From the NCBI GenBank assembly GCA_016788295.1, contig JAEUSY010000049.1, forward strand, positions 44,010 through 108,009: a DNA stretch of 64,000 bases, read 5' to 3'. Of this stretch, positions 12,400-50,072 are shown one piece after another. The translations under genes and the position numbers were made by a program. The notes beneath the pieces were generated by a model that worked only from the letters and a program-made list of their open reading frames with translations, did not search any database and was not told the origin of the DNA. The DNA comes from Flavobacteriales bacterium. GTDB lineage: Bacteria > Bacteroidota > Bacteroidia > Flavobacteriales_F > PHOS-HE28. The first letter of the stretch is position 1. Each line of letters opens with the position of its first letter.

Positions 12400-12474
12400 G
12401 GGCTATTAGCTCAGCTGGTTCAGAGCACTACCTCGACAAGGTAGGGGTCGCTGGTTCGAATCCGGCATGGCCCA
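12400..12474 (+). tRNA. tRNA-Val(GAC), CCA not encoded
   Basis: Cloverleaf: acceptor GGGCTAT/ATGGCCC, D arm GCTC/GAGC, anticodon stem CTACC/GGTAG with loop TCGACAA, T arm GCTGG-TTCGAAT-CCGGC. TACATTTG promoter at 12368-12375. Confidence 0.95.
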
Positions 12475-35730: not shown

Positions 35731-35816
35731 CGCGGGAACCCTGAGATAGATCAGGTCCTGTCCCGTTGCGAGAGAGGTACTTTGTGTTGGTCCTAGTAAG
35801 GGACTGCCCATCCGCC

Positions 35817-36275
35817 ATGGAACCCGTAGCGCACAAACGCAGCGTACTGAAAGCTGCCCGCACCCATCTGGAGAACTCCGCCGCCGAACTGCGTGAGCGT
35901 ATCACTGAGCTCAAGGCCGTGACCATCGGCGACGAGAACGCCGAGAGCGCCAGCCAGACCGAGAGCACACGTGGCTCCGATGTGGAACTGATGAACTCCT
36001 TGGGCGAGCAATTGGTGCATGTGCAACAGGAACTGGAGCGCATGAAGGCCGTGGAGGAGGCCGGGCCGATGAACACCGTTCAATATGGCGCCGTGGTGCA
36101 TACCGACCAACGCAATTTCCTCATTGCCACCAGTATCGATGAGTTCGATGCGGGCGGTTTCCGCTACCTCGGGGTAACGCCCAAGGCACCGGTGATCCAG
36201 GCCCTTTACGGCAAGAAGATGGGGGAGCAGGCCACCATCAACGGCGTTACCTACGCCATCATGTCCATCTTCTGA
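35817..36275 (+). CDS. Divergent GreA/GreB-like protein
   Basis: N-terminal coiled coil with acidic tip GDENAES, C-terminal VQYGAVV...TPKAPVIQALYGKKMGE...YAIMSI. Confidence 0.72.
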   Translation: MEPVAHKRSVLKAARTHLENSAAELRERITELKAVTIGDENAESASQTESTRGSDVELMNSLGEQLVHVQQELERMKAVEEAGPMNTVQYGAVVHTDQRNFLIATSIDEFDAGGFRYLGVTPKAPVIQALYGKKMGEQATINGVTYAIMSIF

Positions 36276-36329
36276 CCCTTCGTTCCATTTCCTTTGCAGG
36301 TGCAGGGTACACTAAGGCCCTGGACCAAC

Positions 36330-36872
36330 ATGGAATTGTATGACATCAGTGTCGGGGCGCGCGTGAAGCACCCGACCATGGGCGTTGGCGTGGTGTATGA
36401 CCTTGATGCACGCACCGTCCACGTGTTCTTCAAGGACCAAGGCGAACAGGCCATCAGCCGCAGCTTCGAAGGGTTGGTGGTGATCGCACCCGGTGTTGAG
36501 ATCGGCCAGGAACCGCTGGACCTCGAGCACGTGCGCGATGCCATCCGCGAGGTGCTGGAGGAGATGCAAATGCCCCAGCGCCCCGTTACCATGCACCCGC
36601 GCTACGAAGGCGGCATGCTGGAGATCAAGCCCAAGGATCCTTCGCTCAAGAGCAAGGAGGTACCGGTCGAGGACTTCTTCCACAAGATCGTCATGATCCG
36701 CGACCGTTTCAGGGTGCTGGAGCAGAAGATCAACGCGCACGATAAACTGAGCGAACAGGATAAGGTGGAACTACAGCAGTACATCACCCGCTGCTACGGT
36801 TCGCTCACCACCTTCAACATCCTCTTCGAGGACAAGGAGGACCATTTCGTGGGGCAGAAGGGCGATGCTTGA
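36330..36872 (+). CDS. Conserved hypothetical protein with N-terminal Tudor/SH3-like domain
   Basis: VGARVKHPTMGVGVV resembles the PcrA/UvrD C-terminal Tudor motif. C-terminal FFHKIVMIRDRFRVLEQKINAH...YITRCYGSLTTFN. Confidence 0.78.
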   Translation: MELYDISVGARVKHPTMGVGVVYDLDARTVHVFFKDQGEQAISRSFEGLVVIAPGVEIGQEPLDLEHVRDAIREVLEEMQMPQRPVTMHPRYEGGMLEIKPKDPSLKSKEVPVEDFFHKIVMIRDRFRVLEQKINAHDKLSEQDKVELQQYITRCYGSLTTFNILFEDKEDHFVGQKGDA

Positions 36873-36875
36873 GCC

Positions 36876-37610
36876 ATGAACTCATCCATGGTTTGTCTGG
36901 CGCTCCTTGCTGGGTGTTGGATCACTGGTTGTTCCCCCACTAAGACAGAGAAGGGAACCTCAACTGCTATGCCAGCCAATACCGAACTGTTCGGTCATCG
37001 TTTCCGGATCAAGGCAGATGTGGATGGCGACGGGTTGGCGGACACCTTGACCGAAGTGTACCATTCCCGCAGTCTGGGGCGCGAGGTGGCGAAGTACATA
37101 CAGGACATGCCGTATGACAGCCTGGTGGCCCGCACCTATGATCTGCAAGCGTTGGTGTTGATCCGCCATTCGAACGGCCATGTGGATACGCTGAGTGATC
37201 GTGGCTCCGGTTTCGGACTGGCCTTGCTGGTGAACGAAGGCGACCTGGACGGTGATGGAGGGGACGAGATCGGCTACGTGCTGGACAATGCGGACTGGTC
37301 GAACACCAACACCTACCGCGTGGCCACCTGGAAAAAGGGAGGCATGCTAGTGATGTTCACCTTCCCGATCTGGGATTGGCAATTACCCGACCTGCCCGAC
37401 ACCGAGCGGGAGTACGGGCTTATCGGGCAGACCGGTCGCAAGGTGCATGCCCCCATGGACAGCATGCCCGTGGTCGATCTGGTGATCCCCTTGCGGCCGG
37501 GTGCTGCGATGGTGATGGGCAATGTCGGGGACGCCACCTTGGACACCATGGAAGTGCGTTTCGCCGAAGGGGACTCCGTGCGATACATACGTCCCGTCGT
37601 TGGGCCTTGA
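36876..37610 (+). CDS. Hypothetical lipoprotein with DxDxDG calcium-binding loops
   Basis: Lipobox ITGC, DVDGDGLADT and DLDGDGGDEIG. Confidence 0.72.
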   Translation: MNSSMVCLALLAGCWITGCSPTKTEKGTSTAMPANTELFGHRFRIKADVDGDGLADTLTEVYHSRSLGREVAKYIQDMPYDSLVARTYDLQALVLIRHSNGHVDTLSDRGSGFGLALLVNEGDLDGDGGDEIGYVLDNADWSNTNTYRVATWKKGGMLVMFTFPIWDWQLPDLPDTEREYGLIGQTGRKVHAPMDSMPVVDLVIPLRPGAAMVMGNVGDATLDTMEVRFAEGDSVRYIRPVVGP

Positions 37611-37647
37611 CTTTTCCACCATCCGTTGCAATGCCTGGCGATAGCCT

Positions 37648-37655
37648 TACTTTCG
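37648..37655 (+). promoter_or_regulatory. -7 element upstream of the 6S-like RNA
   Basis: TACTTTCG (TAnnTTYG). Confidence 0.55.
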
Positions 37656-37699
37656 TGCCGTTGCTCCGTTCTTTCTCAGCCGTGTGCTGATCATCGTAC

Positions 37700-37887
37700 A
37701 GCCCACACAGGCCATAAGTCTCAGAACCAACATTTCTTGCTCAGGGTCGGAAGATCCAAAGGGCAAAGGCGGGCCGCGCATCACCTTCGGGCGATGATCC
37801 TTCGGGACAACGCGGATTACTGACCCCTTTCTGTCCGATCCGCTCATGTGATCCATGGGTTCTTTGTACTTCGGTCCTGTGTGGGCT
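37700..37887 (+). ncRNA. ssrS: Probable 6S RNA (rod-shaped ncRNA, 188 nt)
   Basis: Perfect 12-bp closing stem AGCCCACACAGG/CCTGTGTGGGCT. Nested pairings AAGT/ACTT, AGAACC/GGTTCT, a central bubble, TCGGA/TCCGA, AAAGGG/CCCTTT, CCGCG/CGCGG, two cUUCGg apical loops and a 7-T tract at the 3' end. Confidence 0.75.
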
Positions 37888-37901
37888 TTTTTTGTCCTGC
37901 C

Positions 37902-38546
37902 GTGAACCATTCCCCCGCTGCCACCGACCCACTGAACACACTTCCCGGCCACGTACTGCCGGTGATGGAGGCCTTCTACACCGTGCAGGGCGAAGGCCTT
38001 TTCACCGGGCAGGCCGCATACTTCATCCGCCTGGCGGGTTGCGATGTGGGCTGCACCTGGTGCGATGTGAAGGCGAGTTGGGATATGGACCAACATCCAC
38101 GTTACACGGTGGAAGAACTGGTGAAGGAGGCCGAACGCTATCCGGCCCGTATCGCCGTTATCACCGGCGGCGAACCCTTGATGCACGACCTTGGACCACT
38201 GACGACGGAACTGCGCAAGGCCGGCTTCCGAACACACATCGAGACCAGTGGCACGCAACCCATTTCGGGTGATTGGCACCATATCTGCTTCAGCCCGAAG
38301 AAGTTCAAAGCACCATTACCGGAGATCTATCCGGCGGCGCACGAACTGAAGGTCATCGTCTTCAACAAGCACGATCTGCAATGGGCCGAGGAACACGCAG
38401 CGCGGGTAGCATCCGGATGCGTGCTATTCCTACAGCCCGAATGGGAGAAACGCAACGCCATGATGCCCCTGATCGTGGAACATGTGCGCACACATCCCCG
38501 TTGGAGGATCTCGCTTCAGACCCACAAGTACCTGGATATCCCATGA
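37902..38546 (+). CDS. queE: 7-carboxy-7-deazaguanine synthase (radical SAM)
   Basis: MEAFYTVQGEG, FIRLAGCDVGCTWCDVK (CxxxCxxC), ITGGEP, IETSG, SPKK, SLQTHKY. The GTG start at 37902 is inferred. Confidence 0.93.
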   Translation: MNHSPAATDPLNTLPGHVLPVMEAFYTVQGEGLFTGQAAYFIRLAGCDVGCTWCDVKASWDMDQHPRYTVEELVKEAERYPARIAVITGGEPLMHDLGPLTTELRKAGFRTHIETSGTQPISGDWHHICFSPKKFKAPLPEIYPAAHELKVIVFNKHDLQWAEEHAARVASGCVLFLQPEWEKRNAMMPLIVEHVRTHPRWRISLQTHKYLDIP

Positions 38547-49995: not shown

Positions 49996-50072
49996 TGGTG
50001 GAGCTGAAGGGAGTCGAACCCTCGACCTCGTCATTGCGAACGACGCGCTCTGGCCAGCTGAGCTACAGCCCC
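49996..50072 (-). tRNA. tRNA-Ala(CGC), CCA encoded
   Basis: Reverse complement GGGGCTGTAGCTCAGCTGGCCAGAGCGCGTCGTTCGCAATGACGAGGTCGAGGGTTCGACTCCCTTCAGCTCCACCA, with G3:U70 alanine identity pair. Confidence 0.97.

Follow-up and report, generated by a model that had tools for sequence, protein, structure and literature searches.

The described systems closest to the RNA reported here are two Rfam families, Bacteroidales-1 (RF01693) and 6S-Flavo (RF01685). Bacteroidales-1 was left without an assigned function by Weinberg et al. and carries the Rfam annotation "6S-Bacteroidales RNA suggested". Antisense product RNAs (pRNAs) were detected for the Bacteroides thetaiotaomicron 6S RNA (BTnc017), which has a 5' processing site 8 nt past its transcription start site (PMC7366714), and the Bacteroidales-1 RNA of Segatella copri builds up in stationary phase (bioRxiv 10.1101/2024.04.05.588293). 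Here, we analyze a 64,000-nt stretch of DNA (the window) from contig JAEUSY010000049.1 of assembly GCA_016788295.1 (completeness 96%), in which the spacer 37611-37901 is bounded by a 244-aa open reading frame (ORF; stop at 37610) and by queE, the gene for 7-carboxy-7-deazaguanine synthase. An initial annotation, made from the letters alone, had proposed a rod-shaped RNA in this spacer, probably a 6S RNA. The element belongs to a known RNA class, of which it is a diverged and relocated representative that standard databases miss. The explanation that best fits the sequence evidence as a whole is that 37700-37893 (+) is very probably the single 6S-type RNA gene of this genome, a diverged and relocated orthologue of the Bacteroidota 6S RNA.

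Structure and covariation of the rod

Homologues were gathered by BLAST of relatives and from the regions upstream of queE homologues. This yielded 60 distinct sequences, all of them from uncultured metagenome-assembled genomes labelled "Flavobacteriales bacterium" and belonging to one GTDB genus, and a covariance model, R1, was built on the genus alignment. Folding and comparative alignment place the RNA at 37700-37893 (+), as a rod of about 190 nt with the following parts.

37700-37893, +: 6S-type rod RNA (closing stem, P2, central bubble, P3-P6, apical three-way junction, U tract), assigned from covariation, model R1 and homology
37700-37713 paired with 37873-37887, +: closing stem P1; 13 pairs, 5 compensatory, 98.4% paired
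37723-37728 paired with 37858-37863, +: P2, AGAACC/GGUUCU; 6 pairs, 3 compensatory, 99% paired
37729-37743, +: 5' strand of the central bubble, 15 nt, AACAUUUCUUGCUCA; unpaired in the consensus structure
37744-37841, +: upper arm, with P3-P6, the internal loop and the apical hairpins
37744-37751 paired with 37834-37841, +: P3; 5 of 8 pairs compensatory
37758-37763 paired with 37825-37830, +: P4, AAAGGG/CCCUUU; 5 of 6 pairs compensatory
37767-37768 paired with 37820-37821, +: P5; 1 of 2 pairs compensatory
37774-37778 paired with 37811-37815, +: P6, CCGCG/CGCGG; 1 of 4 pairs compensatory
37768-37775 and 37814-37820, +: conserved internal loop GGCGGGCC...GGAUUAC, below the apical junction with its short hairpins
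37779-37796 and 37798-37807, +: two UUCG-capped apical hairpins; the stems vary, the hairpins are kept
37842-37857, +: 3' strand of the central bubble, 16 nt, GCUCAUGUGAUCCAUG; carries an internal CAUG/CAUG hairpin
37887-37893, +: U tract (7 T) adjoining the closing stem; presumably an intrinsic terminator that forms the 3' end

Every pairing proposed in the initial annotation is present in the sequence, as are its central bubble, the two UUCG-capped hairpins, the promoter box TACTTTCG and the seven-T tract. The core of P1 (37700-37711/37876-37887, AGCCCACACAGG/CCUGUGUGGGCU) forms 12 bp without a mismatch, and the core of P3 (37747-37751/37834-37838, UCGGA/UCCGA) was lengthened to its listed extent by covariation. 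The predicted fold energy of the + strand is -78.9 kcal/mol (z = -3.9), a value that none of 200 shuffled sequences equalled. The minimum free energy fold of the single sequence draws the middle of the rod wrongly, and covariation backs the initially annotated pairing instead.

Pairs were counted on a MAFFT alignment of 52 trimmed distinct sequences that had not been fitted to any structure. Standard pairs occupy 98.0% of the cells, compared with 31-48% when the partners are slid by one to three columns. Covariation among the queE-upstream regions of relatives, which the initial annotation had proposed as a check, is evident: both partners have changed in 22 of the 46 pairs, compared with 4-8 pairs in the slid controls. 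The covariation score is 0.341, compared with 0.036-0.095 for slid partners and 0.148 for shuffles, and the observed value was reached in 0 of 500 shuffles; the RNAalifold consensus contains 44 pairs, 21 of them compensatory. The apical region was badly aligned by MAFFT and was therefore folded one sequence at a time; the two apical hairpins recur in nearly all of 50 distinct versions, with stems as different as CCACC/GGUGG, CCACAC/GUGUGG, CCUUAC/GUAAGG, UUGC/GCAA and GUGC/GCAC. The hairpin in the 3' bubble strand (CAUG 37845-37848/CAUG 37854-37857) is 96% paired, shows a single compensatory pair (C-G to U-A, in loci L033 and L034) and could be extended by 2 bp into the 3' strand of P2.

The transcribed strand is the + strand, because many of its G-U pairs would turn into A-C mismatches if the opposite strand were read, because the tetraloops read UUCG, and because the covariance model score is strongly asymmetric (R1 score of 196 bits for +, 20.7 bits for -). 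The predicted promoter and the U tract likewise lie on the + strand.

This asymmetry also bears on the notion that no RNA gene is present at all and that the fold reflects a DNA palindrome, a repeat or QueE coding sequence. The reverse strand does fold well (z = -5.1), as it would for any rod, and an ORF from GTG 37848 runs into queE. However, the G-U pairs occur on the + strand only and the model score is strand-asymmetric, and the element is single copy, with no dispersed repeat. Among relatives, 37848-37893 carries indels of 1 and 2 nt and covaries as RNA, so the ORF start at 37848 is an artefact, and the alignment of QueE family models begins only some 20 residues past GTG 37902. Translation of this region as the QueE N-terminus, the possibility against which the initial annotation had set its own reading, is contradicted by the indels, the RNA covariation and the QueE model alignment; its suspicion that the true queE start lies downstream was borne out, and the over-extended ORF is hereby corrected. 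We regard the absence of an RNA gene as effectively refuted.

Relationship to Bacteroidales-1 and 6S-Flavo

A scan of the window with Rfam 15 returned nothing at gathering score except two tRNA genes, at 12400-12474 (+) and 49999-50072 (-). Across the whole assembly RF00013 (6S), RF01685 and RF01693 all failed to pass, and the best RF00013 matches in the genome reached 12 bits and were located elsewhere. The comparison with the Rfam 6S and 6S-Flavo models suggested in the initial annotation was thus negative at gathering score, and yielded only a sub-threshold match to the apical part of Bacteroidales-1; this match spans model positions 60-123, that is, the apical junction with GGCGGGCC, the two hairpins and GGAUUAC.

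The relationship becomes visible with the model built from the genus itself. In a search of 401 class-level genomes, R1 found one match per genus member, as well as full-length matches in nine other families (E 1e-15 to 3e-7). All 12 RF01693 loci, ten of them above gathering score, were matched by R1 over the full length with E values of 6e-11 to 1e-3, and so were all 10 RF01685 loci (E 3e-10 to 8e-5); coordinates and strand were identical in every case. Conversely, RF01693 recovered 7 of the 17 scanned R1 loci of other families at full length with sub-threshold scores (38-51 bits), and the class-wide search gave further RF01693 matches to R1 loci at the same coordinates. Within single genomes (G326, G137 and G314), pairs of the three models fall on one identical locus. 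Since R1, RF01693 and RF01685 coincide on single loci, we conclude that they describe one RNA superfamily, of which the window RNA is a diverged member. Judged by these model matches, the window RNA is a full-length homologue of both Bacteroidales-1 and 6S-Flavo. The initial reading as a probable 6S RNA is strengthened by these reciprocal matches at identical coordinates.

Throughout the superfamily, the conserved parts are the closing stem with its U tract, P2, the GGCGGGCC/GGAUUAC loop and, in the bubble, CAACA opening the 5' strand and CAUGU in the 3' strand; P2 covaries to AAACUC/GGAGUUU. The Rfam 6S-Flavo model comprises the inner 108 positions of an RNA of about 160-190 nt (L158-L167). 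With R1, each of these loci gains about 26 nt at either end and reaches a closing stem (GCCUGUAU.../...AUACAGGC) and a U tract that fall outside the Rfam model.

A unified model, R2, was built from the MAFFT alignment A4, for which the RNAalifold consensus has only 23 pairs, so that R2 is mostly a sequence profile. The superfamily alignment fitted by covariance model (A3) was not used; it has 435 columns and is contaminated with antisense matches of genus members. R2 gave exactly one match per genome in 161 of the 401 Bacteroidia genomes, representing 81 of 199 genera, and the source genome (G000) has one match each with R1 and R2. At gathering score, RF01693 annotates 10 and RF01685 annotates 5 of the 401 genomes; the two Rfam models together thus cover 15 sampled Bacteroidia genomes and the unified model 161. 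Bacteroidales-1 and 6S-Flavo being one superfamily, there is a case for merging the two Rfam families.

Homology and architecture together suggest a 6S function for the window RNA; in other bacteria, 6S RNA imitates an open promoter and restrains RNA polymerase. One could instead suppose that this is a genuine, abundant small RNA of the Bacteroidales-1/6S-Flavo kind, and that the superfamily, or this branch of it, acts as a protein scaffold or a base-pairing regulator. Canonical RF00013 does not match it, the branched apex and the GGCGGGCC/GGAUUAC loop are not features of proteobacterial 6S RNA, Bacteroidales-1 was described without a function, and no polymerase-binding experiment is known for any member of the superfamily. 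Set against this are the antisense pRNAs of the B. thetaiotaomicron member, the stationary-phase accumulation in Segatella, the single copy per genome, a ZapA linkage that matches zapA-ssrS of Escherichia coli, and a rod whose 15/16-nt bubble, with a hairpin in its 3' strand, agrees with 6S architecture. A non-6S role therefore appears improbable.

Genomic address, promoter and queE

The usual address of the superfamily is a co-oriented series of coiled-coil ORF, ZapA, RNA and RNase Y (rny). The ZapA-RNA-rny order was found in 5 of 5 loci of family f14, in 10 of 10 6S-Flavo loci and in 21 of 40 further loci (13 families), and one more locus has ZapA only. In E. coli, too, zapA adjoins ssrS. 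The genus under study has a different order, namely Gre-like ORF, Tudor-like ORF, RNA, queE and an OmpA/TPR protein, and in the window a 244-aa ORF stands between the Tudor-like ORF and the RNA. Outside the genus, queE adjoins the RNA in one family only (f82, L138), in 1 of 17 loci and then in 0 of 40 further loci, so the queE context is indeed unusual, as the initial annotation had remarked.

In the source genome, ZapA (Pfam PF05164) and RNase Y are separated by a 67-nt spacer in which neither R1 with filters off nor Rfam at E <= 5 found an RNA. Because this slot is empty and the single RNA copy lies at queE, the 6S gene has moved: it is relocated from the ZapA-rny slot to directly upstream of queE in this lineage. 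The initial annotation had offered a relocated 6S gene, a second 6S gene or a different RNA, and had considered another copy in the ZapA-rny spacer; relocation holds, and a second copy does not, with one match in the genome.

The region around the RNA contains the following further features.

37613-37621, +: TTTTCCACC, an upstream element some 5 nt ahead of the -33 box; reads TTTTC(C/A)ACC in almost every homologue from the genus, whichever the subclade
37626-37655, +: predicted sigma-A-type Bacteroidota promoter; -33 box TTGCA at 37626-37630, 19-nt gap after TTG, -7 box TACTTTCG at 37648-37655
37667-37675, +: conserved CGTTCTTTC box in the predicted leader, near-invariant in the genus, 9-11 nt past the -7 box
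37676-37690, +: leader hairpin P0, UCAGC-CGUGU-GCUGA, 9 nt before the rod
37902-38546, +: queE, matched by NCBIfam QueE models and Pfam Radical_SAM

The queE gene probably starts at GTG 37902, with ATG 37965 as the alternative. This start is favored because the GTG, 7 nt past the U tract, is conserved in most of the window's subclade, and because the frame to the QGEG motif is kept: wherever compared in this subclade, the distance from GTG to QGEG differs by multiples of 3 despite length variation. The 8 nt from the U tract to GTG 37902 accommodate no promoter, and queE is therefore probably expressed by read-through from the RNA promoter or from a promoter inside the RNA gene. In sister-subclade loci (L022, L028, L037, L038, L048, L056 and others), a conserved TTCnTTTG(C) box occurs 5-6 nt before queE ATGTCC, which suggests a -7-like element and a leaderless queE mRNA. 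The window's subclade is without this box and has the conserved GTG after the U tract instead.

This arrangement would suit a cis-regulatory queE leader, a riboswitch or attenuator in which the closing stem and U tract act as a regulated terminator for queuosine-precursor synthesis: the RNA lies directly upstream of queE and co-oriented with it throughout the genus and in one other family, and in the window's subclade 8 nt, with no promoter box among them, separate the end of the U tract from the conserved GTG. Elsewhere the neighbours vary, however: in other families the RNA stands apart from queE at 16 of 17 loci, as it does at 40 of 40 further loci, and most of these homologues precede rny or unrelated genes. 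No preQ1 riboswitch model matches in the region, and the sister subclade has its own TTCnTTTG box before the queE ATG, downstream of the RNA; together, these three observations argue strongly against a queuosine riboswitch or leader. Moreover, the supposed terminator is the stem that closes a 190-nt rod, conserved alternative pairings were not observed, and full-length homology links the RNA to a trans-acting 6S RNA. A queE leader is hence a very improbable account, and we retain the relocated 6S gene.

The promoter pattern TTG..N19..T(T)ACnTTCG is kept in about 45 of 52 relatives. The Bacteroidota consensus is TAnnTTTG, and in Flavobacterium psychrophilum the -7 box lies at -12 to -5 (PMC9723704); this spacing predicts a transcription start near 37660 and, with it, a leader of about 40 nt. 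Upstream of the promoter, TTTTCCACC could serve as a site for a regulator or extend the promoter. Within the predicted leader, the CGTTCTTTC box may signal processing or an alternative start, and 42 of 43 distinct leaders are predicted to form a hairpin of 4 bp or more at the place of P0, with widely differing stems.

Similar boxes occur beyond the genus. In several other families the RNA is preceded by GTTCTTT or by a form that differs in one letter, and CGTTCTTT or a one-letter variant was found at the 6S-Flavo loci L158-L167 and at L128, L132, L134, L136, L139, L140, L142, L144 and L157. At the 6S-Flavo loci, the box lies at -23 to -27 from the closing stem, where Bacteroidales have TAnnTTTG; in Flavobacteriaceae its position, -23 to -16, is exactly that of the TAnnTTTG -7 box of Bacteroidales 6S. 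No canonical TAnnTTTG is visible upstream of the 6S-Flavo loci. Across the families that have it, the box often follows directly on the zapA stop codon, with no canonical TAnnTTTG in between. The CGTTCTTT box travels with the RNA and is present at the new queE address, which makes this a clear case of a 6S gene moving while retaining its upstream box.

Two roles for the leader were considered and rejected. It does not behave as a mimic of the 5' bubble strand, with which it shares an ending in CUCAG or CCAUC, since within a subclade the bubble varies and the leader does not; nor does its GUUCU appear to compete for P2, as the box stays GTTCTTT where P2 is AAACUC/GAGUUU. More speculatively, the RNA might carry a non-canonical start or processing signal of its own, consisting of the CGTTCTTT box and the covarying P0, with queE coupled to it through 6S transcription and terminator read-through. 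We consider this combination unlikely. Were it correct, the closing stem and U tract would be the sole barrier between 6S and queE, and synthesis of the tRNA-queuosine precursor would be tied to 6S transcription and terminator read-through in this lineage.

Several neighbouring genes were also inspected. The Tudor-like gene at 36294-36872 (+) encodes a 192-aa protein with a weak, sub-threshold N-terminal match to RapA Tudor_1 and a strongly conserved C-terminal half; it is widespread and single copy (112 of 331 Bacteroidia genomes), and lies directly upstream of 6S in this genus and in one f20 genome (G178; 44% identity). A functional pairing of the Tudor protein with 6S was rejected: among about 12 non-genus genomes with coordinates for both, the genes adjoin only in G178, and genus member G261 also lacks the adjacency. 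The 169-aa ORF at 35766-36275 (+), previously called Gre-like, keeps a conserved place ahead of the Tudor-like gene in many members of the genus. It has no Pfam match, and its only NCBIfam match is NF004548, a nucleoside diphosphate kinase regulator of the Rnk type, at 28 bits against a cut-off of 126; PDB sequence searches with the Tudor-like and Gre-like proteins gave nothing. The 244-aa ORF at 36876-37610 (+), without a Pfam match, is inserted between the Tudor-like gene and the RNA promoter and was found only in the closest relatives (9 of the loci searched). In family f14, a Flavo-1 RNA (RF01705, 51 bits, above gathering score) was found at L132 681-758 (+), just upstream of the coiled-coil/ZapA/6S/rny cluster.

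Proposed mechanism and known counterparts

Several observations weigh against assigning the locus to 6S RNA. The top Rfam match, to Bacteroidales-1, scores 20.6 bits against a threshold of 60, and RF00013 and RF01685 match nothing at the locus. Under strict filters, 240 of the 401 class genomes have no R2 match, and universality is therefore not established. The -7 box reads TAnnTTCG, one mismatch away from TAnnTTTG, and lies 52 nt before the rod, which calls for a long leader or a start elsewhere. The RNA is always upstream of and co-oriented with queE in the genus, and queE here is seemingly without a promoter of its own. Finally, the case for a 6S function in Bacteroidota is built on pRNA reads and growth-phase profiles from two Bacteroidales species.

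The structure, the homology, the single copy and the relocation are demonstrated by the sequences; transcription, polymerase binding, pRNA synthesis and co-transcription with queE are predictions. On the favored 6S assignment, transcription would proceed from the sigma-A -33/-7 promoter at 37626-37655, starting at about 37660. The leader of some 40 nt, with the CGTTCTTTC box and P0, would probably be trimmed, and termination would occur at the closing stem and U tract (37873-37893). The rod with its 15/16-nt bubble would then mimic an open promoter and occupy the housekeeping sigma-A RNA polymerase. Judging from E. coli 6S RNA, the 5' bubble strand (37729-37743) is presumably the template side for pRNA, and on the return of nucleotides the polymerase would copy a short pRNA from it into P2. 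GGUUCU of P2 would thereby be freed, the CAUG/CAUG hairpin would gain two pairs, and the polymerase would be released. A release rearrangement of this sort has been described for E. coli 6S RNA; for the window RNA, support for the CAUG/CAUG hairpin is weak, with 96% of cells paired but a single compensatory pair. The queE gene would probably be read by terminator read-through, like ygfA behind ssrS in E. coli.

The finding leaves the understanding of how 6S RNA works unchanged. It supplies the missing annotation of a housekeeping 6S RNA for this uncultured lineage, which is labelled Flavobacteriales and comes mostly from activated sludge and fresh water.

Among known systems, Bacteroidales-1 (RF01693; BTnc017 and the S. 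copri RNA) is one of the closest to the window RNA. Both are single-copy RNAs of about 180-195 nt with a closing stem followed by a U tract, P2 beside a large central bubble, the GGCGGGCC/GGAUUAC loop, and a three-way apex with two short hairpins, the first capped by CUUCGG; they are linked by reciprocal full-length covariance-model matches. The low score of the window RNA with the Bacteroidales-1 model (20.6/60 bits) arises because its basal half has diverged. It is also richer in G+C (54%, compared with 43-49% in Bacteroidales-1) and differs in its address upstream of queE. Its predicted leader of about 40 nt, with a covarying hairpin, contrasts with the 8 nt between start and processing site in B. 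thetaiotaomicron.

The 6S-Flavo RNAs (RF01685) belong to the same superfamily and share the CGTTCTTT-type box upstream. In Flavobacteriaceae, however, the apex is reduced and GCAAGCC/GGAUCCUUGA replaces GGCGGGCC/GGAUUAC, and the 6S-Flavo gene sits between ZapA and rny.

The canonical 6S RNA (SsrS, RF00013) of E. coli and Bacillus subtilis is likewise a rod of similar length, with a central bubble of similar size and hairpin potential in its 3' strand. It shares with the family of the window RNA an ancestral zapA linkage, seen in E. coli, and, immediately downstream, a co-oriented gene for a protein (ssrS-ygfA). Sequence or covariance-model similarity between the two is not detectable, and the apex of the window RNA is branched. 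E. coli 6S RNA is matured by nuclease processing, whereas the 3' end of the window RNA is a predicted intrinsic terminator. The sigma factor for which the promoter would be mimicked also differs, as it would read -33/-7 rather than -35/-10 promoters.

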